DNA of 63,007 bases, filler included, from Folioceros fuciformis (taxonomy: Eukaryota): the NCBI GenBank assembly GCA_049999805.1. It is 5 parts of 5 records of this genome, joined end to end, with 100 filler letters (N's around TTAATTAATTAA, not from the genome) between each part and the next. Parts side by side here need not be neighbours in the genome. Positions count along the whole stretch, not along the records: positions 1 to 16,581 come from JBNGIO010004132.1; 4 more parts are not named here. One strand, written 5' to 3'. The position numbers were made by a program, and so were the translations under genes. The notes below the pieces were generated by a model. That model saw only the letters and a program-made list of their open reading frames with translations, did not search any database and was not told where the DNA came from. Positions within the stretch are counted from its first letter, which is position 1, and each line of letters starts with the position of its first letter. Below, in pieces: positions 4,794-50,657 of the stretch.

Positions 4794-7700
4794 ATGGGGG
4801 ACCATCACCTCATGGACGCAATAAGAAGAATGTCAGACATGACATTCCACCTTCCAATGAACCAAGGATATGCATGGTCGTACCATGGTAGGGGACTCCG
4901 ACCTTCCATACCAGAGAGACCTAGACTTCACATTTGGGAACAAGGCCCCGAAGAAAAGATAAAACGACATATATTTCAGCGTATGGAAGATGAAAAAGAA
5001 CTTAACGCCCTTCGGTAATACCTCTTATCTTTATGTGTGTGTGTGTGGGTGTCAGGGATTTCTACTAAGTAATCCTTTGGGCATCATCACTAATTATGTT
5101 TAACATTCATTATGCAATAGGGAATATAAGAATCAAATACATGGTTGTGAGGATGCAAAAGGTTGCATCATTCGAGGAATTGGAAAGACAGAACAAGAGT
5201 TATTGATGGAGAATGCTTATCTCTACCGTTACAGAGTGGAAAAAAGTGATCTTTTCCAATATGCAAAACCACCAGGAGATATAATGCCTACTTCAGGAGA
5301 TGCAGTAAGGATTGCAATTGGAACCCCCTTCTCCCCCGTCACTTTTGATCAATATGTAAAGTTTGTCTTTAAGTTTGTTGGTGGAAGGAAAGAAAGAACT
5401 TTCTTAACAAGCAAATCAAATAACCCATTCTGAATTTTGTATTCATACTAAGAATATGTTTTCATCTATAGGTTAAATGCGTTTAGAGCATGAGTTAGAT
5501 GGATCAACTAATTTATGGATGCTCTACTAGTGGGAAGCAAGCCTACGAGACTATGGGCAACCTGTTGATCCGTTAGCCTTTGCTATCGAGCCTCCAAAGA
5601 GAACACTAGAGGTCTCAGAACAAATAGGTTATCCAAACAAGGGAGAAGTCAAATATGACTTCTTCTGTGGTTGTACAAAACACCCACCACATGAGGAAAG
5701 GAGTAAGTGGAAGCCAGGAGACTTTTACTTTGAAACCCTAGAAAGAGAGCTTCCCAAAAAATTACCTTTCAAGCCAGATTTTCCAGGATTTGAGGTACTA
5801 CTAAAANNNNNNNNNNNNNNNNNNNNNNNNNNNNNNNNNNNNNNNNNNNNNNNNNNNNNNNNNNNNNNNNNNNNNNNNNNNNNNNNNNNNNNNNNNNNNN
5901 NNNNNNAATATTCTCTTTTTTTGTGATATTATTTTCACTATTTAAATGCATGATTTTACATTCTTGAAGGTTATTCATATTCTAATGTTTCATGATGCTA
6001 TTGTAGTAGGTTGTTGGTCAAAGTAATTGGCCTCCCAAACCTTCACCTGAAAAAGTTATACAACCTCCTCCAAAGAAGGTGAACATAAAACATAAAGATG
6101 CTTAGGCTTCTGGGATGGAACATTCAACTAGTCTTTTATGTTTTAATTCTATTTAGATAATTTAGATATTATACATAAAAGCTCATTTCTTATATCAATT
6201 AGGAAGAAGAGGAAATACGTTCATTTAAAGGACCAGCTGCAAAAATAGATTGCACATGGGCACTTTTGCCTGGACATGTAGGTATGCAACCAACTAAGAG
6301 TATCACAATGCTTTCTCTTATGTTGAGTAACATGCAATGCTTTTCTTAATACTTGTTAATTATTATTATTATTATTATTTCTGTCTATTAGGTGTGGTAG
6401 CAACTTCAAAAATAAAGTTAAAAAATACAGGCACTACAGCACTGTATTTTACTTGGGAACATGTACCTATGAGACCATACATTATAAAAGGTACATTTAT
6501 GATTTTCCTATGCTCTAGTTTTTAAGGTTTCGTGATAAGTTGATAGGAGAGAGATTTTCCAATTTAAATTATAACTTGTCATTGCCGGCAACAAAATTAT
6601 AAAGTTTTCTTATTCAGATTGATGATGTAGATCCCCAACCTAACCCAAACAGAGTATTCCATGTAATGTGCGGTAGCGGAAGCATAGTCCCCGACGAGAG
6701 CAAAGAATTTCTATTTAGTTTTAAATCCAAAGTTGCAGGCATTTTCTTAGAGAAATGGGACGTTATATTTGATCCTAAATTAATAGAGCCTTTACAACCT
6801 CTTGTTGTCAAAGGACTTGCATTTTTGGATGAAGAACCAACTAGGTGGATATGATACTTCTATCTGCTATAACATGTTATTAATACTCTTGGAGTTAAAC
6901 ATGTTCTAATTTGGATTTGTTGTTGACACTCTCTCTTAGGGTACCAAGGGAGAAACTTGTGGCTTTGTTAGAGCAAAGAGAAATGCACCGTGGAGTGGAG
7001 GAGGTGAATGAATATTTATGGTTAACATCGGTTGCTATGGCCAAGCCAATTCCAAAAGTGGGCGAGTTTTTGTTAAATCCAATGGAATCTAAGAACTTCA
7101 TAAGAAAAAATCAGTTTTTTAAATTACCTCTATATTTTTCGGAAGCATTGTACAAGGAGCTGCTACATCTCTACAAGTTGGTGCGAATTGAATTGTTTGA
7201 AGAAGGATTGTGCACAAAAATATTGGATACTATTTTTCTCTCTCCAGGACCCCACATTAAACCACAAGCATACAAAGGACCATCAATTGAGATACCTGTC
7301 CATGAATCTCTTTTGGATGATACTTTTCCTCTTCAATCCTTGCCAAATGCAGTTCCATTCGACCCATATCCAAAAACAAATCCTATTCAAACTCCTTCAG
7401 TGATTCCTGACGATGGAGGCCCAGTGCGACCTCTCACACCCTTAAAGAAGCCTCGCCCTAAGCCATCTACAGATATACCTCTTGTGGTTAAGTCGGAAGA
7501 AACAAGGACACTTTGGTTTACAGCAAATCTCGTGCCACCTTGTGGATATGGTGTTGCTAGTCTTCGGCCAGCAGCTGCTGCAGCACCTGGTCCAGTGTCT
7601 TTGCGTAATAGAGGATTTGCAATCAACACCTCTTTATACCCTTCACCTAATGCAGTATTATTCCCAGACCATGCTTGGATAGATGAAGTGTCTCCTTATT

Positions 7701-8983
7701 ATGCAATCCAAGTTGAAAAGCCCCGGTTTGTTCCTATACCTAAAGATCCCACAATACCTCACAATATACCACCACATAGGCCTCATATATTTCCGCCTCC
7801 CCCACCTCCTAATCCTGTACCTTTTACTATCCCTCCTGGTACAGAGAAGAATCCATTTTGGCAAAACTTTTGGTTTCCCCCTTTGTTGGCACCTCCATGT
7901 GGGTTTGGAGTTCCAGACCTTATTCTCAATAGAACGGAAAGCATGGATCCAAAATATCCTTCAGTTGTGGATTCTTTTGCAAAGATACCTAATTTGGTGT
8001 ACACTACTGTATGGGATGGCTCTAGTCTTACCATCTTACAAGGAATAGCTGCCATTCAAAATGACAAAAAAAGAAATGAGTTCAGGAATATCATTGCAAC
8101 TCTTCTAGATGCTGCAGCAGTACCACCTAGTAGATTTGCTTTATTATATGTAGCTATGTACAAGGTTGTCTATGATGTTATGGGTGCTTTTTCGGAAGTT
8201 TTCCAATCCGTAATGGATGACCCACGAAAAACCCTTGAAGAATGTGAGTTGCGTTTTCAATACATATCAGAAGAAGTTGAAGAGAAACCTACACAAGATC
8301 ATGAAGAACCAGTGGAAGTTGTTAATGACAAAAAGTCCAAGAAAAAGGTGGGTAAAAACCCGCCTTCAAAAGAGGATAAAAAACCTAAGTCTAGGTTGAA
8401 GACACAAAGTGAAGCTAAGGAAATAGATTCCAAGCCTCTTAAGACAAACCCATCAAAGTTGGATGTTCCAAAATCTAAAGCCAAGGATGAAGTAGTAGAC
8501 ACAATTGATGACAATAAGAAAAATCCTAAGACGAAGGGGGACATCTCGAAAGACAAGCCTCAGAAAAATGTAGATAAAAAATCTCAAGGTAAAAAGGAGG
8601 TTGACGTCGAAGTTAAACCTGAGGAACCTGAACCCAAACTTGAGGCACAGGATGAGGTGGTTCAAGAAGACCCTGCAAAAGAAACACGAAAATTTTTGTT
8701 TGATATGATGGATGCATCAATCCCTAAATCAGTTGAAATAGAGGAGGTAAAGAAACTAATTGGTATGGGTATAGACCAGTATGAGGAACAAATCAAGATA
8801 GGTTATGCTGCAGCATTACTTGTAATTGATGAGAGGATTAAAGTTTTGAAACGACAACCCAATCAAGATGAAACTATATGCTGGTCTATATTTCAATTGG
8901 AGACTAAAAGGGATGACTTGCTAGAAGAGGAGAGGGAGTTGTTAGGATGCAATGAGCTAGATTGTAAATATTGTTTCGAATAA
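4794..8983 (+). CDS. MYCBP-associated protein (MYCBPAP/AMAP-1)-like ciliary/flagellar protein, multi-exon, spans an N gap
   Basis: Approximate exons are 4794-5014, 5121-5355, 5531-5794, 6391-6490, 6618-6844 and 6940-8983, plus probable small exons near 6010-6280. The motifs ELLMENAYLYRYRVEKSDL, YWEASLR, KLKNTGTTALYFTW and GSIVPDESKEFLFSFKSKVAGIFLEKW resemble the MYCBPAP family as recalled. The gap at 5807-5906 prevents a full model. Confidence 0.75.
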
Positions 8984-10117
8984 TCTTCATTCATGCTAAT
9001 CAATTTAATCAGGAAGTAATTCTTTTCAATGATTTTAAAGTAACACATCATTCAAAACCATGTTCCTTGTAAAAGTGAGGATGAATGCACAAGATATGTT
9101 TTGTCTCAAATTTGAGTTTGTGGCAACCTTGCCCTGCATTGCTTCCAACGTAATGTCATGTGTTATGCAAGTAATGCAAATAACATACAATTATTTAAGT
9201 GCAATAGAATCCATAACTTAATGTTGAAATATTTTACTAATCTTTCATGTTGATTAAATAAGTATTCATGCTATTCCTATTATCAAAAGTTTAGAGCAAA
9301 ATAGAGTAAATAGGATTTGAAACTAGAGACGATGATTTTTGTAGTACCAAGGCTGAAACAATCAATCCATCTATTTCCAAGCTACAAAGATTTTGACACA
9401 CTTCTTGCATATAATAAATAATATCTAAGTTATATTTTACTTTTATATATATATATATATATAAGGTTTTAAGTTTTATAGGTTAGAATTTTTAGACTGA
9501 TCAAATATTCTAATATTCCTAAACCCATTCTAGTAATGCACAAAGTAAGGACCCCACTTAACTGAGTTTCAATAATTTTAACCTATCTGATTGAGTTTTA
9601 GCTTTTTATTTTCCCTAAAATAGGAGAAATTAGACGAGAAATGAAGTAAAATTAACCTGGTGAGTGAGCCGAAAACGAGACACATGACTCTAGGAACATG
9701 CCAGCAAAGACAAAAACAAAGAGTTGAATATGTGTCAGGTGGCAGCATAGGCACCACCGCCTTACCCTATAGCACACAACTAACCAATCCGTGAGGCTTC
9801 TCTTCTACGTTTCAGTGCAGGTGCAAGGAATTTTCGCTTGGACGGTCATAGGACCCGGCGCCATAACAGCTTGTACGATGGAGTGGGGCCTTGTGTGGTA
9901 GTGGAAGGTCATCCACTACCTCCAATCACTCCATCCAAGGAGCCATGAGAGGAAGGAGACAGAGGCAAAGCAGCAAGCGCTTTCGTGCGATTTGTCAATC
10001 ATATGGTGCTTACGCATGTAGGAAAGCCATTTTCGGTGTGTCCCAAGTATGACTCGATTTCAGATTGTTCGGTCGTTGGAACAGTGTTCCTGACCCGTTG
10101 TGAATTTTCCCGCCACC

Positions 10118-10184
10118 GACGCAGATGCAGATGCAGATGCAGATGCAGATGCAGATGTAGACGCAGACGCAGACGCAGACGCAG
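10118..10184. repeat. Compound hexanucleotide microsatellite (gcagat)n(gcagac)n
   Basis: Directly visible array upstream of the TMEM65-like gene. Confidence 0.9.
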
Positions 10185-10756
10185 GCTCCGTCCCGGGCTA
10201 CCACCCGCCTACGCCCTATGACTCTTCCGTGAAAAGCTCTCAGCCCTGCCTTCCTGGTCTCTTCCCCGTTGCATCCTCCGAACTCCGCCTCAATGTCCTT
10301 TCAACGCCGCCGCTCCCCTAACTCCTTGGGCCATTGTCTCTTCTAGCGAGAGCGGAGCTTGGAACACGAGTTTTGGGGTTTAATTGCGTTTCCATGATTT
10401 TCTCCTGGAATAAAATAATCCATTCGAGCTCCAGGGATGCTTCCCATTGGTGCCATGGATGCCTTCGTTCTGCTGCAAGGACTGTTCTCAGCACAACGTG
10501 CCCAAGCCGATGGACATGCTGACCATGCATTCCGGGGTGCGTCGGCCTTGATGCAAACGACGGCTTGCATTTTCCATCGGCGTGCAGAATCCGTGCCGAA
10601 CTTCGCGCCAGGTAGGGTAGCTCAGGTGGAATCATCATGGAGGCGCAGAGGCAGGGCTGAGGAAGGAAGTGTCCTGAACCGATGATGCCCCAGGCACAGC
10701 AGGAGCACTGACCCTCTCAAGCGGGGATTCTGCGGTGTGGCCTGGTGTTGGACGAC

Positions 10757-12673
10757 ATGTCATTTTGTTCAGCCAGCATGTCGGGGACGGTGTGCTCCCG
10801 GTGTCATTCTTGGCTCGGAAGAGACAAAGTGCAGTCAAGAGGCAATGGCCTGCGGAGCAAGCCGAGATTTGTCTCTGCCGCCAGTGACGGCATTGTCAGA
10901 TTGAACGGCGGGTTGTGTTTAGGCCCTCGGTTTGTATCCTACAGGAGTGGCCGGGGGCATGTGGCTTGTGCTGCTAGCGAAGGCAGCTCCAGTGCGTTGA
11001 CACTTAGCAATGAGGAGGCAGTAGTGGGAGTGGGAGAGTTGCTTGCGGGAGATCCCGAGGCAGCAGCACAACTGGCACGGGTCCTTGTGACGAACATTGA
11101 TAAACAGGGGCGTGCGATATTGTTGTCAGCCCTGTTTGCAAGTGGTAGGTCAATCTACACCGATGTTGTGCAATTTCATGTTTTAATGTTGCACGTGTTC
11201 CAATATTGAAAGGTTGGCGTGCATGCTCCTCACCAGATAAGCCAGGTAGTGAGGCTGACATTTAAGCTCTGCCGGCTTATTCAACGCCTGGACTCATTAG
11301 TGTGTGTTTGGTAAATGTGGGCAGCCCCGGATGCAGAAGCGGATGAGCACTTCAAAGAAGCTGATACCAATTCTGATGGTGTAGTGGATCGAATTGAGTT
11401 TGCAAATTTTGTGGAGGCGCAGGCTGTCAAGTATGGCACGTCCAAAAAGCCACTGACGACAGACCAGCTTGTTCAGCTTGGGGTGCGAGCTGGCGTTGGT
11501 GAGTCCAATTCCTATGGTATGCATAACATGCGGTGCTGGTAGGCACAAGTGGGTAATGCCAACGGCTGGCGAGTGCTAAAATGTTTGCCGGGTTTGCATG
11601 GTTTCCATTTCCATCTCGTTGTACAATTCTCGTTGCCTCGTGTGCGGATAGGATACCTGATCTGGTGGTTCCAATTCCTCATTCCTGCCTGTAAACAGCC
11701 CCGAGATTGAACTTGATGCTCTGTGTTCCAGCTTCTCCTACAGTTGCATTCTTTTAGCTTTCTGAAGCTGCAAACCGTCCAGGAGACTTCTAATTGTGGT
11801 GCCGTGTGTTGAAGTGGCTCAGGGATGATTGGCTTCGGCTTCACAGGTATCTACTCCCCTTTTGCCGCCTTGGCTTCCAATGCATGACCTTGCATTTGTC
11901 AACAATGTGCTGATTCCAAGTGTGGATCCAACAACCAGATAATGCCATCATGATCATCGCTGGGGATGCGATACAGAACAGCATCGGAGTAGGGCTGGGC
12001 CTCTCCACCCTCATGGTGAGTGAAAGCCCCCTCCATTACACTGCTTCTTCGCAGCTGGATCGGCATTGGTGTGAAATGTGGAGATGTCGGAGTCATGTGC
12101 CTTCGCACTGCGCAGTCAGCAGGACTGGGAAACGCCATTGCGGATCTGGTGGGAACAGCTTTCCGAGGCTACATCGAGATGGTATCAAGCCACTTCATGC
12201 CAGAGATAAAAGTGTCCTCCGTGCAGATGCAATCGAAAGAAGCCTGGTGGGCAGACACTGTTGGTTCCACAATCGGAGTGACGCTTGGTTGTCTCCTGGG
12301 GCTCTTGCCTCTCCTCTACATCGCCAAGCACGAAGACGGTCCAGCGGGCGGAGAGAACATTCCCTCACAAGCGATCGTGGCCCAAACCGACCCTGCTTCG
12401 AGTGACATCAGCTACTGTGTACAGACGCAGAGGCAGGAGGTGGGCGGTCCCAGCGACGGGGGTCGTAGCGCCCCCAGCAGCAGCAGGGGGAGCGGAACCC
12501 TATTTGCGTCTGTCTCCGGCGCATGTGCATCACCTTGTCTGACACGAAAGCCTGACACGATGCCCGGCAAGCTTGGTGGCCTGATCCTTATCTTGACGGT
12601 ATCATCTCTCATGGTTGTGCGGAGAGCGGTGCAGTTCGGGCTGGCGAGGAGGAAGTCGGCACCGCTAAGATGA
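10757..12673 (+). CDS. TMEM65-family membrane protein with an N-terminal EF-hand and probable organellar transit peptide, 5 exons
   Basis: Exons 10757-11144, 11325-11498, 11823-11846, 11939-12015 and 12116-12673 join in frame. They give GMIGFGFTDNAIMIIAGDAIQNSIGVGLGLSTLMSAGLGNAIADLVG, matching the TMEM65 signature (IGFGFxDNAIMIxAG...GxSTxxxAxLGN). A canonical EF-hand loop DTNSDGVVDRIE lies at 11363-11398. The start codon is inferred. Confidence 0.85.
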
Positions 12674-13597
12674 GTACGAGCTCGCCTGGCAACTGGGGAG
12701 TGGTACTCTATGTAGGATCCTGTATCTTTCTTTGTCTGAGCACAAGGGAAGCAGTATGCACAAATTGTAGCCAAATTGGAAGTGGGTTTCAAAACTTTCC
12801 GTCGCCGAGCTCACGGGGTGGGCTTTTGTCTGACAGGCTGGCGTGTGAGATGAGGATGGCGTTCCGTTTAGAATAGAGTATGTACACACCTTGACCAGAC
12901 TACAGGTGTACCTGGCCCCTCCCCGGAGCTACAGTACCGAGGGGTGAGGTAACCGAGCCGGGTGTGTATACGTCCGTATAGCAGCTAATAATCTATATAT
13001 GTGGAGTACACACCTATGTATGCGAGGTGTCGTTAAATCCGGACTGGGCGGATATTGTCCGGCGCGACCGTTGTGCGGGCAGTGCATGTGTCCGAGTCGC
13101 ATTGCCAAGCTCGCAGCCAGTGGTCGCGTTGCACGAAAGCTCAAGGGCAAGGCAGAAGGCATAGTGCGTGGGTGGGCCAGGGGGAACGGGATAAGAGAAG
13201 AAGACGTCAGACAGGGGATGCCTTTCGTCAGCAGGGAGCAAGCGGACACAGCAGCCGACTCAGCGCGGATTAATCTTATCTGTTCAAGCCCATCTACGAT
13301 TTTATCTGAGGCAGACCCACGACGAGGCCAGCCTGGGAGCACGACCTGTTGGGATTGGCCACCAGGCTCCGCCGACAGCGCCCCTTCAACTCCTTTTTAC
13401 TCGTCCCGCCGCGCGTCTTCTGCCACTTCGCACCTCGATTCCGACGAAGACGCAGACCCAAACCCCAACCCTGACCCCCACCCCCGAAGACAACTCTTGA
13501 GACGTGTGTCCCCGAGACAGGGAGAAAGGGAGAAGTGGAGCTTGGTGCCGGAACGAGTAACACTCCAGGCGAGAGAGAAGCAGGCAGTGCAGTGCAG

Positions 13598-39650: not shown

Positions 39651-41571
39651 TCAGGGAGCTGTGAGGGCCCCGCCACCAGGACCATCATCCTCATCATCAA
39701 GGTCTGCGTGATATAACCAGTTCAAGGGCATCTTTCTCTCCTCATCAAAATTGTCCTTCCAGCAATTTTGAAACAGTGGAGTCGACAGGTACCTCTCCCC
39801 AAAGCTCGGCAACACACACTGTAAGACGAGAGCACCAGAATGAATCAAGCCCATCTCGACGGGCACTAACCATCCTGGGTGCCCTGGCCCAAAGCCCCAT
39901 CTATTCATCATGCAAACTCTACAGTAAACAGATCACGTCAGGCAGAGGCAGGCGCTGACAACTAAACAGAAAACCTGTTCTGTAAAATGAGCTTACAACG
40001 ACCAATTTTCCTTTGTTCTCTGGACGCCGGGCAATTTGAATAGCTGCATGAGTTGCAGCGCCAGATGAGATCCCGACCAGCAGACCCTCCTCCTCGTGAA
40101 GCCTCCTAGCCATGGAGAAAGCATCCCTACTGCTCACCTGGTCCAAATCAACATCCAACCGTGAGATAATGTTCACTTATAAACAAATATGAAGTTCTTC
40201 CATCTATGCAGAATGAGGAAATACCTTTACAACTTCATCCAGAAGATCCAGATTCAAGACCCTGGGAACAAAACCTGCTCCAATGCCTTGGATCTGATGA
40301 TATCCGGCCTTGCCACCTGAAACCACAGGACAGCAATGGCTCAACAAGGAGCGTGCTCATTTGAAGCAAGCTCGATCCTTCTGTCCGGCAGAAATCAGTT
40401 TAACGAGTGCTCATCGCAGACCTGAAAGAACAGCACTTTCTGCAGGTTCAACCGCCACGAGTTGCACATATCTGTTCATCTTCTTCAAGTACTCACCACA
40501 CCCACTGATTGTTCCCCCCGTGCCAACGCCTGCTACTAGGAAGTCGATCTACATCACGACAAGGCAAGAAACATCTTAGGGAGCTCTTTTCGTCATGATC
40601 AGGTACAGGATGTGCGACATGCCACCTGTCACAGCGAGCTCATACACAGGTGACGAGAACCCAGGTACCTTGCCTTTTGTATCCCGCCAGATTTCAGGAC
40701 CAGTGGTTTCGAAATGTACACGAGGATTTGATGGGTTGTTGAATTGCTGCAGACTGTAAGCATTTGGAGTCTGCCGTACGATCCGTTCAGCCTTCTGGAT
40801 TGCCCCAGTCATAGCAGCCTTGGCTGGAGTTAGTACCACCTGCTTTCAAAGCACAATATAGTGCAGTCAATCAGGAAGTGAAAGGAAGGAAAACTGCAAA
40901 CAGATGCTGTGGCACAATTGGCGACCAAACTTCCAGGCACTGGGGTGCCAACACTTCACCTTGGCACCGAATGCTTGCACAAGAATACGACGCTCCATGC
41001 TCTGGTCCTCCGGCATGGTCAAGATGAGCTTGTAGCCCTTGGAAGCGCAGACAAACGCCATACCAATACCGAAGTTGCCACTGGTAGGTTCAACAAGGGT
41101 GCTAACGCCGGGCGAGATCAACCCCGTCCTCTCAGCATCTTCCACCATAGCCAAAGCAATTCTATCCTTCACGCTTCTGCACGGTTGCATGGCCTCTAAT
41201 TTGCAAGCTATTCTAGCACAGCACCGAGACGCAACCCGGTTGAGATACACCATGGGTGTGTTGCCCACCAGCGAGAGAACATTTTCCCGAATTTTGCTCT
41301 CACCCTTCGTCTCCGGCACGTCGGTGTCCACAGTGATAGATTCCGCACGAACGTTCAAATTCCAGGCCCCTACTCTTGAGCAAGACTCTAAACGACCCAC
41401 TAACACACCAGCAGACTGCGACTCCAAATGAACCCACGTCCGAGAAGCCTGTCCTCCCAAACCCAACATCCCAGAGACATCGCACTTTGATGGGAACACC
41501 GGACAGTGCATCCTACTCCTCCCACACAGCGCAGAATTACCCACAGGAAGCAAGAGATGGCAGGCCGCCAT
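39651..41571 (-). CDS. Plastid cysteine synthase family protein (OAS-TL fold; CS26/S-sulfocysteine synthase-like), multi-exon
   Basis: Transit-like N-terminus, then [26 protein letters not shown] (PLP lysine), [38 protein letters not shown] and [10 protein letters not shown]. Confidence 0.9.
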
Positions 41572-42080
41572 GCCAGGTGCCTGTGGCCTCGCTCCCCCGC
41601 CTTTTTCACTCTCTCCAGCACCACCGCCCACGCATGGTGGCCTGTTGCACTCACACTCAAACACTGGCTAGGTTTGCCAAAAGCTCCTGAAGGCCACCAC
41701 AGAATCCCCGGTTCAGCTACCCCGCCGGCCTTCCTTGCTCCGCCCAGATAAGCCAGAGGCGCAGGCAGCTCGTGAGCATTTGCCCGCGGGACCGGCTACA
41801 GCAACAGGAAAATGCAGCGGAGCAGGCGACGTATGAAAATCTATCTATCCGTATACAAAACACCTGTCTAATGAAGAATCCTAGCGTTCAATGATACAAG
41901 CCTGGCCCAGCCCAGCCCGGCCAGGCCCTCTCTCTCTCCAGGCCGCTGATCTCTTGTAGGCTGTGTGACTCATCACTGATCAGTAGGAGCGGGTAAAGCC
42001 CAGCCAGGCCAACCAGGTTTAGCTACCAGCCGCCCCCGCACTGCATTCTTGTGCACTGCTCACCTTTCTGCCCCGTCTCC

Positions 42081-48296: not shown

Positions 48297-48396
48297 NNNN
48301 NNNNNNNNNNNNNNNNNNNNNNNNNNNNNNNNNNNNNNNNTTAATTAATTAANNNNNNNNNNNNNNNNNNNNNNNNNNNNNNNNNNNNNNNNNNNN
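48297..48396. other. Artificial contig-join spacer (N-flanked TTAATTAATTAA)
   Basis: 12-mer at 48341-48352 between N runs. Confidence 0.95.
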
Positions 48397-48470
48397 TTTG
48401 GAGGGTGGGAGTGCGGGGTTGGGGAATCGGGATCGGGATTTGGAATTTAGAGGGCAGGAATTCGGAGGGG

Positions 48471-50657
48471 ATGGCGGGAGTGAGGTCCTGGATCAGGGGG
48501 AGCTTGATTGGCGCAGGGGCGTATGGCAAGGTGAATTTGGCCTTGAACAGGGATAACGGAGAGCTGTTTGCTGTGAAGTCCATCGAATGTTCTGACAAGG
48601 CGGAGAGCGAGTTGAAGGCCATCGAGAACGAGGTGCAGATTCTGCAGAGCTTGGATTCTCCCTACGTCGTGTCCTGCTACGGGAGTGATTGGAGTGTGGA
48701 GAACGGGAAGTCGATGCGGAATGTGTTCATGGAGTACATGCCGGGGGGGAGCGTGGCGGATCTGATGCAGAAATTCGCTGGGAAGCTGGACGAGAGCCTG
48801 GTGCGGGCCTACTCCAGGAGCATTTTGGAGGGCCTTCGCTACCTGCATAGCCAGGGGGTGATGCACGGGGACATCAAGGGAAAGAATGTGCTGGTGGGCG
48901 CCAAGGGGGTGAAGCTGGCGGACTTCGGAGCTGCCAAGAGGATTGCGGCACCCGGAAGCGGGCAGCCCTTGGAATCCATCAAGGGTACCCCGCACTGGAT
49001 GGCTCCGGAAGTGGTGATGCAGGTGGAGCGGGGCCCGGCTTCCGACATCTGGTCTCTCGGCTGCACAATTGTGGAGATGGCCAGCGGGAAGGCGCCCTGG
49101 AACCACCTTCCAAACGCCTTCTCTGCTATGTTTCACATTGGGTGCACCCAGGATTTGCCTCCCATGCCGGACTCGCTGTCGGAGGAGGGCAGGGATTTCT
49201 TGGACAAGTGCTTCCAAAGGGACGCCAAGGTGCGCTGGACGGCGCAGCAACTCTTGGCGCATCCCTTCATCACCGGGGAGTTTTGCTGCCCCGAGCCTGC
49301 CGACAAGGTGCCGCAGCCCGAGTCTCCTACTAGCGTCATGGATTTCGCGGGGCCCCGCGGCTGGGACACCCAGTCCAGGTCGGAGTCAGACATTGAGAAT
49401 TCCGTTCCCATCTTGGCTCTCAAGCGGGCAGGGGCCCTGGCGGCCCCTGCGCCTGCGCCTGCTCCTCCTTCCTCGGCTCAGAAGCAGGAATTGGAATTTG
49501 GTTTAGGCTCTTTCAGCGGTGAGCAGGCGGAAGATTGGTGGTGCAGCTCACCTCTTACGCCCAAGGAGGGGCAGTGGATTACGGTCCGGTCCCCGAAACT
49601 GCCTGGCCCGGGCTCCTCTTCTTCTTCCTCCTCCTCTGCTTCTCCTCTTGTGGACTCTTCCTTTTCCAACTTCCCAAGCGCCCTGCTCGACTTCTCCAAC
49701 ATCTTTGTGGGCGCCCATCCGGCTCCTGAGGCTAAGCACGTCGGCGAGGAGGAGGCGCAAGAGGTGGTGGTGGAAGCGACTCCGGCAGTGGCATGCAGCA
49801 GCATCAACGTCGGCATCAGCAGTGAGGAGGACGCTGAGCTTGTGGAATTTCCTCTCCCTGCTCCACTGGAAGAGGAGTCTCACGAACCTCACACTGCCTG
49901 GAAGCAAGCTCAGGCTCCTTCTGGTTCGGAGGGTTGTTCCGAGAAGATGGAGAGAAGTGAAGAGTGCAGCTGTGCAAGCAGCAGGGGTAGTCTGAGCGAG
50001 GCATGCCACTCGTCCGTCAAGGTTCCTCTTGTCCCTCACATTTCCATCACTGGTTCCCACATTTCCAACACCAGGATTGACGAAGTGTCTGAAAGACGTA
50101 GTTGGATCAGAAACCTGGGGTTGAGGGTCTTGTCCTTGGTGCATCAACTCACCAGGGCTTGCACCGATCCTCATCCTGGTTTCTTTCTAGACTTAGAGCA
50201 GGCTGGCTGCTCCCTGAGCAGAAACTCCAAGAAAACATTGGTGGCAGTCGCCCTCTGTATTCTTATTTTGTTTATCATATCACAGCTTTGCTGGCTGTTT
50301 AAACCTGTGGTCTTCGTACTCCCCGTGCACCATGTTGTGGCTTCTACTCTCCTCTTGAGCTTGTGTGGTGTTGCGTCTTGGTGTTTTGCCTGTGGACTCA
50401 TGTGTCTTGTGTCATACAACTGCGTAAGCAAAAGGTGCAGGAGTGGTGTGGTCTGCGAGACGTTGTTGTGTGGAGCGTATCTTGTGTCACACAGGCGCGT
50501 GAGCACCAGGCCTACACCACGCATTCTGGGGTGGACATTTCCTTGTGTCAAAGGCCGAGAAGTATGTAGTTTAGTACGCATTGTGGGGGGTGGAATGTGT
50601 GTTTGTGTGACACAAGCGCAGAAGCAAAAGAGTCCGAAAAATGGTTCAGCAGGCTAG
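48471..50657 (+). CDS. Intronless MEKK-type MAP kinase kinase kinase (MAPKKK13-21-like clade) with hydrophobic C-terminal segments
   Basis: Kinase motifs WIRGSLIGAGAYGKV, LFAVKS, FMEYMPGGS, HGDIKGKNVL, KLADFG, GTPHWMAPEV and SDIWSLGCT, followed by SPTSVMD and GQWITVR motifs. The true C-terminus is less certain than the kinase domain. Confidence 0.92.
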   Translation: MAGVRSWIRGSLIGAGAYGKVNLALNRDNGELFAVKSIECSDKAESELKAIENEVQILQSLDSPYVVSCYGSDWSVENGKSMRNVFMEYMPGGSVADLMQKFAGKLDESLVRAYSRSILEGLRYLHSQGVMHGDIKGKNVLVGAKGVKLADFGAAKRIAAPGSGQPLESIKGTPHWMAPEVVMQVERGPASDIWSLGCTIVEMASGKAPWNHLPNAFSAMFHIGCTQDLPPMPDSLSEEGRDFLDKCFQRDAKVRWTAQQLLAHPFITGEFCCPEPADKVPQPESPTSVMDFAGPRGWDTQSRSESDIENSVPILALKRAGALAAPAPAPAPPSSAQKQELEFGLGSFSGEQAEDWWCSSPLTPKEGQWITVRSPKLPGPGSSSSSSSSASPLVDSSFSNFPSALLDFSNIFVGAHPAPEAKHVGEEEAQEVVVEATPAVACSSINVGISSEEDAELVEFPLPAPLEEESHEPHTAWKQAQAPSGSEGCSEKMERSEECSCASSRGSLSEACHSSVKVPLVPHISITGSHISNTRIDEVSERRSWIRNLGLRVLSLVHQLTRACTDPHPGFFLDLEQAGCSLSRNSKKTLVAVALCILILFIISQLCWLFKPVVFVLPVHHVVASTLLLSLCGVASWCFACGLMCLVSYNCVSKRCRSGVVCETLLCGAYLVSHRRVSTRPTPRILGWTFPCVKGREVCSLVRIVGGGMCVCVTQAQKQKSPKNGSAG

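Follow-up and report, generated by a model that had tools for sequence, protein, structure and literature searches.

The gene at positions 10757 to 12673 (+ strand) of the Folioceros fuciformis DNA analyzed here (assembly GCA_049999805.1; 63,007 nucleotides including filler, the whole of which is referred to as the window) places an EF-hand ahead of a TMEM65 membrane core, which raises the question of whether it encodes an organellar transporter that senses Ca2+. Human TMEM65 is a mitochondrial inner-membrane protein for which Na+-dependent extrusion of Ca2+ has recently been demonstrated (PMC12830682 and PMC13254257), and it was only in 2025-2026 that TMEM65 was established as a component of Na+/Ca2+ exchange in animal mitochondria. 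In the literature, the EF-hand of the nonanimal orthologues has served only as a pointer to a role of the family in Ca2+ handling. Ca2+ release from plant mitochondria and chloroplasts is poorly defined; the section on mitochondrial release in a 2021 review (PMC8890496) covers animal NCLX and LETM1. The analyses described below indicate that the window gene is an uncharacterized new member of the EF-hand TMEM65 family, in the green-lineage branch of that family, and that its description in the initial annotation as a candidate Ca2+-regulated organellar transporter is a reasonable reading of the sequence. Marchantia and mosses are genetically tractable and provide a route to test both EF-hand gating of TMEM65 and the organelle concerned. 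The value of the finding is limited in that the fusion has already been noted and vascular plants appear to be without the gene.

Gene structure and transcript evidence

Five exons, including a 24-nucleotide (nt) micro-exon, had been predicted in the initial annotation. When joined, these exons gave 1221 nt, corresponding to 406 codons and a stop codon with 0 internal stops, and the four introns (180, 324, 92, and 100 nt) were all of the GT-AG type. The introns of the gene are short, and the G+C content of the window is 48.9%. Ahead of the start codon (ATG at 10757), the same frame has a TGA stop at 10709-10711. The parts of the transcript are as follows.

10300-10756, + strand: 5' leader, covered by transcript contigs 10300-10483 and 10463-11143, with one contig extending past 10300
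10757-11144, + strand: exon 1, with the start codon, a presequence-like N-terminus of ~75 residues rich in Ser, Arg, and Gly, and then conserved helices ahead of the EF-hand
11325-11498, + strand: exon 2, with the helix-loop-helix of the EF-hand and a linker helix to the first membrane helix
11823-11846, + strand: exon 3, the 24-nt micro-exon, with the start of the TMEM65 core (Gly-Phe-Gly-Phe of membrane helix 1)
11939-12015, + strand: exon 4, with the remainder of membrane helix 1 and the beginning of helix 2 (TMEM65 profile positions 14-37)
12116-12673, + strand: exon 5, with the remaining TMEM65 core (profile positions 39-108), a low-complexity tail of ~80 residues, a fourth hydrophobic helix, and a basic end before the stop codon
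12674-12789, + strand: 3' untranslated region, up to the end of contig piece 12115-12789

Only one public run (X1) was found to carry this stretch (0.74 of sampled words), and it was compared with the window over positions 10300-13300. Six X1 records matched this region with 0 differing letters. The contigs were joined at 11143/11324, 11497/11822, 11843/11936, and 12014/12115, all with GT..AG borders, and these joints equal the four predicted introns once the cut offsets are applied. Exon 1 was spliced to the EF-hand exon 2 in an 857-nt contig, exon 2 was spliced to the micro-exon in a 58-nt contig, and exon 4 was spliced to exon 5 in a 776-nt contig that also included 22 letters of the micro-exon. 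The junction of the EF-hand exon with the TMEM65 exons, for which the initial annotation had proposed a check against RNA, was therefore present in the X1 contigs. No run carrying the stretch was recorded as RNA, and X1 was labeled RNA by guess; it was taken as RNA because its contigs are spliced. The protein joined from the five exons could also be aligned with seven relatives (40-52% identity) free of gaps at every exon junction, which supports the gene model independently of the RNA.

It is very improbable that the gene model is an artefact, either because the locus is a pseudogene or because the EF-hand exon and the TMEM65 exons come from separate genes. Such an explanation could draw on the micro-exon joints, both of which are supported by short contig sides only (25 and 22 letters), on a contig that is unspliced across intron 2, and on the guessed RNA label of the run. 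It is contradicted by the four GT-AG joints at the predicted sites in contigs identical to the window, by the uninterrupted frame, and by the gap-free junctions in alignments with relatives from at least nine named species. On the basis of the spliced contigs, the open frame, and the gap-free relatives, the pseudogene and the mis-joined model were rejected. The TMEM65-type gene is real and is expressed as spliced RNA.

The unspliced contig (382 nt, window positions 11470-11846) begins in exon 2, retains intron 2, and reaches the micro-exon; its depth was 10.4 versus 23-49 for the spliced contigs. Reading through intron 2 ends the frame 15 codons in, which would yield a product with the EF-hand only, or the contig may simply represent pre-mRNA.

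The leader upstream of the start codon is at least 457 nt long and has 11 upstream ATGs. It may be a long regulated leader or part of an overlapping neighbor transcript; the contigs give no strand. Just upstream, at ~10094-10300, are dinucleotide microsatellites that read as Asp-Ala frames on one strand and as Cys-Val and Ile-Cys frames on the other.

Domains and conserved residues

The Pfam scan was run exon by exon rather than on the joined protein as one piece. Exon 1 (129 amino acids) matched no Pfam family. Exon 2 (57 amino acids) matched EF-hand_5 (E 4.1e-5, 23.3 bits) and four further EF-hand models. Exon 4 (25 amino acids) matched TMEM65 (PF10507) with 24.9 bits at profile positions 14-37, and the micro-exon covers the profile positions just ahead of these. 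Exon 5 (185 amino acids) matched the same family with 52.2 bits, compared to a cutoff of 25, over positions 39-108 of 109. All eight full-length relatives scored 99-109 bits for TMEM65. Membership in the TMEM65 family is clear. The Pfam check suggested in the initial annotation thus gave a divided result: the TMEM65 match was above its cutoff, while the EF-hand match (23.3 bits) fell below the cutoff of 25.9 even though the loop is canonical. The overall architecture that had been described was upheld: the N-terminus is transit-like, there is a single canonical EF-hand loop, the TMEM65 core is complete, and the tail carries an additional hydrophobic helix. Its principal elements are the following.

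11363-11398, + strand: EF-hand loop of 12 residues (143-154), with Asp, Asn, Asp, Gly, Asp, and Glu at loop positions 1, 3, 5, 6, 9, and 12
12263-12301, + strand: glycine zipper (Gly-x3-Gly-x3-Gly-x3-Gly) in membrane helix 3, residues 271-283
12572-12619, + strand: C-terminal extra hydrophobic helix, residues 374-389, followed by Arg-Arg (Kyte-Doolittle 17-mer mean, 2.09)

Residues 143-154 fit an EF-hand pattern of the PROSITE PS00018 type, and the six loop positions listed were invariant in 7/7 moss, liverwort, and unnamed relatives. The motif Gly-Phe-Gly-Phe-x-Asp-Asn is found at residues 191-197. The zipper glycines, which are G262, G266, and G270 in the numbering of the unnamed relative P0002, were nearly invariant among 150 representatives.

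The residues required for the activity of human TMEM65, which according to PMC12830682 are D132, D167, G170, and E178, are all retained. They correspond to Asp196, Asp231, Gly234, and Glu242 of the window protein, with identical spacings (35, 3, and 8), the context of the human residues having been taken from the primer table of that paper rather than from the human sequence. The position of human E144 is occupied by Gln208, so that exon 4 carries both Asp196 and Gln208; the human E144Q variant was reported to be more active than the wild type (PMC12830682).

The window protein is like human and other animal TMEM65 in its Pfam family, its three-helix core, its Gly-Phe-Gly-Phe-x-Asp-Asn motif, its helix-3 glycine zipper, the identically spaced equivalents of the four required residues, and its N-terminal presequence. 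In contrast to the window protein, animal TMEM65 has no EF-hand loop and no fourth helix, its tail is short and acidic, and it has Glu at the position of Gln208. The statement in the initial annotation that animal TMEM65 is without an EF-hand held for the one animal relative that was compared, Nasonia vitripennis TMEM65 (P0020), in which the conserved helices flanking the EF-hand position are kept and the loop is a gap. Thus, animal TMEM65 resembles a version, without the loop, of a design with an EF-hand that is widespread. This points to descent of the animal protein from a form that had an EF-hand, a direction of change that we infer from the alignment.

Occurrence of the EF-hand/TMEM65 fusion

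The initial annotation had implied that the fusion was novel, and this does not stand by the criterion set in that annotation, under which a prior description of the fusion as common would count as refutation. The EF-hand/TMEM65 fusion is already known and is common outside animals. An EF-hand on many nonmetazoan TMEM65 orthologues is mentioned in PMC13254257 (2026), its preprint (bioRxiv 10.1101/2022.08.02.502535) refers to kinetoplastid orthologues with an EF-hand, and databases name the fusion automatically. Two protein-atlas clusters named for it have 325 members (mostly Chlorophyta) and 345 members (mostly Euglenozoa), and UniRef names several relatives of the window protein "EF-hand domain-containing protein."

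A search with exon 5 identified eight longer proteins, and a profile made from seven of these identified 21. Named relatives were from Ceratodon, Marchantia polymorpha, M. paleacea, two Riccia species, Spirogloea, Mesotaenium, and Closterium. A profile search of 1.84 billion representatives yielded 2085 proteins at E≤0.001, 1418 at 1e-10, and 74 at 1e-30. The family counts given here refer to the best 150 of the 2085, which are biased to EF-hand carriers since the profile spans the EF-hand region. All 150 matched TMEM65; EF-hand_5 was matched by 76 (E≤0.01), EF-hand_1 by 74, GAF by 2, and a cyclic-nucleotide-binding domain by 2. A canonical loop was located 45-67 residues ahead of the core motif in 59 of the 150, 65 had a long N-terminus without a canonical loop, the upstream part was too short in 11, and 15 were without the core motif as defined here. 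Canonical loops downstream of the core were found in 17. The recurrence of the loop within the same 45 to 67 residues in 59 of the 150 proteins indicates that its position is under long-term constraint. Carriers of the fusion that could be named included Chloropicon, Picozoa, an Aplanochytrium cluster, Mesostigma, and a Prasinoderma cluster.

In four proteins, P0021 (Triparma columacea), P0022, P0018, and P0019, sensor domains follow the TMEM65 core, either GAF, cyclic-nucleotide-binding, or a strong pair of EF-hands. The TMEM65 core seems, from these domain arrangements, to have recruited ligand sensors several times and at either end, and members with GAF, cyclic-nucleotide-binding, or C-terminal EF-hand-pair domains are as expected if a transport core recruits ligand sensors.

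A green-lineage subfamily with four helices

The phylogenies place the window protein in a green-lineage subfamily from Prasinoderma, Mesostigma, Zygnematophyceae, and bryophytes. In an IQ-TREE analysis of 22 rows, the family was split with support of 99/99 into one side with Chloropicon, an insect, Picozoa, and others and a second side with Mesostigma, the Prasinoderma cluster, Closterium, other zygnematophytes, bryophytes, and the window protein. A number of long branches come together in this tree, and its deep joins are to be read cautiously. The subfamily was recovered as 18 rows with a support of 95 in a FastTree analysis of the core region (141 rows), from which 16 rows with no motif or an incomplete core were left out. 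The window protein and P0002 formed a pair (94/93) outside the clade of mosses and liverworts, and the position of this pair relative to Spirogloea, Mesotaenium, and Netrium was not settled by IQ-TREE.

The subfamily is set apart by its C-terminal tail, which is ~80-140 residues long and closes in a hydrophobic helix followed by basic residues, an arrangement that the window protein fits. A hydrophobic 17-mer of at least 1.6 on the Kyte-Doolittle scale was found in the tail of 15/18 subfamily rows versus 2/123 others, and the three subfamily rows under 1.6 have either a mispredicted end or a weaker yet alignable segment. The median tail length was 96 residues in the subfamily versus 14 residues in the others. 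At the position of human E144, the 17 subfamily rows that could be matched had Gln (12) or Glu (5), versus 1 Gln, 68 Asp, 35 Glu, and 1 Gly among the 105 others that could be matched.

Uncharacterized orthologues with the same full architecture were found in bryophytes, namely, Ceratodon purpureus (M758_4G227600, P0001), Marchantia polymorpha (AXG93_4537s1020, P0005), M. paleacea (P0007), and Riccia (P0006 and P0008), and in streptophyte algae, namely, Spirogloea (P0011), Mesotaenium (P0012), Netrium (P0013), Closterium (P0014 and P0023), and Mesostigma (P0026). These proteins are collinear with the window protein throughout (40-54% identity) and have the same EF-hand ligands and a C-terminal helix followed by basic residues, but their presequences cannot be aligned with that of the window protein. 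The EF-hand TMEM65 proteins of kinetoplastids, chlorophytes, and other protists (e.g., Chloropicon primus P0040, also named "EF-hand domain-containing protein" in databases) likewise have an N-terminal EF-hand at a fixed distance before the core. However, they fall on the other side of the 99/99 split, their tails are short, a fourth helix is rare among them (2/123), and most have Asp or Glu at the E144 position. The literature search turned up no characterized protein of this type.

No named vascular-plant member was found among the matches listed, in a database in which lycophyte, fern, gymnosperm, and angiosperm proteins are plentiful, and vascular plants appear from this comparison to be without the gene. 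A literature search found no description of the fourth helix and tail of the subfamily; Supplementary Fig. 1 of PMC13254257 or the preprint 10.64898/2026.06.03.729735 may already show plant members. Searches for TMEM65 in Trypanosoma, Chlamydomonas, or Marchantia found no literature, searches for TMEM65 with Arabidopsis or chloroplast found incidental mentions only, and DUF2453/PF10507/IPR019537 was found in one 2009 survey only.

Predicted structure

An AlphaFold2 model was obtained for P0002 from 150 sequences, with a mean predicted local distance difference test score (pLDDT) of 71.9 and values of 83-97 over residues 70-280. The model has five N-terminal helices, an EF-hand loop between helices 119-129 and 139-152, membrane helices at 162-202, 206-235, and 249-270 (pLDDT 87-97), and a C-terminal helix. 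Two of the helices ahead of the EF-hand are linked by only two residues. A structure predicted from a shallow alignment of 7 sequences (pLDDT 34.8) was discarded.

A Foldseek search of the Protein Data Bank (PDB) with the P0002 model gave no match at E≤0.001. When the model was compared with 48,161 chains by VIA-align, the best Z score was 6.7, the matches to residues 160-280 were generic helical ones, and the N-terminal domain was barely covered. The best match in a sequence search of solved structures was a calmodulin-like protein (E 0.036), and no TMEM65 entry was found among those structures.

Proposed function and alternative explanations

The explanation that we favor, with a probability of roughly 0.55, is that the gene encodes an organelle-targeted TMEM65 protein of the inner membrane that exports Ca2+ and has a Ca2+-sensing EF-hand on the matrix or stroma side. 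The protein would export Ca2+ from the matrix or stroma and exchange it for a monovalent cation. The single EF-hand lies ~48 residues ahead of membrane helix 1, which would place it on the N-terminal side (matrix or stroma), where it would bind Ca2+ and raise transport as organellar Ca2+ rises. The long tail would be on the opposite side of the membrane, and the fourth helix would cross back, leaving the basic C-terminus on the side of the EF-hand, as the positive-inside rule would predict. In human TMEM65, the N-terminus is reported to face the matrix and the C-terminus the intermembrane space (PMC12830682). If this topology is conserved, then the EF-hand would face the matrix or stroma.

Functional analogies are provided by MICU1-3 and by plant NCL/EF-CAX, in which an EF-hand sets the Ca2+ threshold of Ca2+ transport across organellar or endomembranes. 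The window protein has no sequence relation to either. MICU forms a soluble subunit of its own, and its paired EF-hands are on the side of the intermembrane space, whereas the window protein has a single EF-hand within a membrane protein, which probably faces the matrix or stroma.

Several points weigh against the proposed Ca2+ exporter with its own sensor. EF-hands normally operate in pairs, and a pattern scan found no second canonical EF-hand loop in the window protein; the two-residue link between the helices ahead of the EF-hand in the P0002 model means that there is no second Ca2+ loop there. The EF-hand profile score is under the curated cutoff, and the same is true of the Pfam EF-hand scores of 8/8 full-length relatives; single EF-hands often score below the profile cutoff, and our confidence is lowered only a little by this result. 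The AlphaFold2 model is that of a relative with 52% identity and not of the window protein. Whether TMEM65 is the exchanger itself or a regulator of the exchanger has long been disputed. The Gly-rich stretch that follows the second required Asp is unlike that of animal TMEM65, and the comparison of N-termini given below used hand-made statistics, not a trained predictor. The liposome evidence for transport is cited here as summarized in PMC12830682 and PMC13254257, and a literature search found no transport, Ca2+-binding, or localization data for any plant or algal TMEM65.

An alternative is that the protein is no transporter itself but acts as a Ca2+-sensing accessory subunit, through which a different organellar cation exchanger or channel is turned on or off. 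Garbincius et al. reportedly first proposed TMEM65 as a regulator needed for NCLX-dependent efflux. Three or four short, Gly-rich helices per chain would be small for a stand-alone exchanger, and there is no solved structure that shows a pathway. However, TMEM65 has been reported to act without NCLX and, when reconstituted, to transport Ca2+ (PMC12830682), as it did in liposomes (PMC13254257), and the charged membrane-embedded residues needed in human TMEM65 are conserved in the window protein. It seems unlikely that the protein is an accessory subunit only.

The deviations of the subfamily from animal TMEM65, with Gln at E144 and a different Gly-rich stretch after the second Asp, might also be read as a sign that the core carries a substrate other than Ca2+ (e.g., Mn2+, Mg2+, or monovalent cations only), with the EF-hand as a regulatory input from organellar Ca2+ or only a structural element. 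Plant organellar Ca2+ and Mn2+ transporters often have common substrates, according to a review (PMC8890496), and the fusions with GAF and cyclic-nucleotide-binding domains show that sensors of ligands other than the substrate can be joined to the core. Nevertheless, none of the four residues on which the Ca2+ effect of human TMEM65 depends has been lost, and human E144Q kept, and even raised, activity (PMC12830682). A different substrate appears more doubtful still than an accessory role.

Compartment

For the favored Ca2+ exporter, the organelle was considered by comparing the N-termini of 13 subfamily proteins starting with Met to those of 77 others. In this comparison the median position of the first basic residue was 13 in the subfamily versus 5 in the others, and the median stretch ahead of the core was 195 versus 144 residues. 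Eight of the 13 subfamily proteins start with Met-Ala; the window protein starts with Met-Ser-Phe. Several subfamily proteins have a Val/Ile-x-Cys/Ala motif ahead of the conserved part, which we take to resemble a stromal processing site. These N-terminal features point, with modest preference, to the plastid as the probable compartment. A mitochondrial location is the less probable one, but it would still be a realistic candidate.

The deep split between the subfamily and the chlorophyte/animal type would fit an old duplication with retargeting. It is possible, although we regard the complete scenario as unlikely, that the subfamily represents an ancient paralogue of the green lineage, redirected to the plastid envelope as an exporter of Ca2+ activated by stromal Ca2+ and then lost and replaced in vascular plants. 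If this were true, an exporter in the plastid envelope would be a missing component of chloroplast Ca2+ signaling.

Other genes in the window

Four further reading frames were noted in the window.

1392-2216, - strand: frame with a KH domain (E 1.9e-14) and CCCH zinc fingers (E 2.1e-12), a gene for an RNA-binding protein
6899-8983, + strand: frame of 694 codons, with no Pfam family at E≤0.001
40870-41667, - strand: frame covering the beginning of a pyridoxal-phosphate-dependent enzyme domain (PALP, E 6.9e-27) and presumably a single exon from a larger gene
48345-50654, + strand: intronless frame of 770 codons with a full Pkinase domain (E 3.8e-64) and a run of N at 48353-48396 within the first codons

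The kinase frame is MAPKKK17/18-like, and its matches make it likely that the DNA is from a land plant, probably of a lineage without annotated close relatives in the database; a hornwort would be compatible with this. Its best named matches were from land plants at 45-58% identity, none of them close, and included proteins from Diphasiastrum, Marchantia, Calypogeia, Riccia, Ginkgo, Cryptomeria, and ferns.

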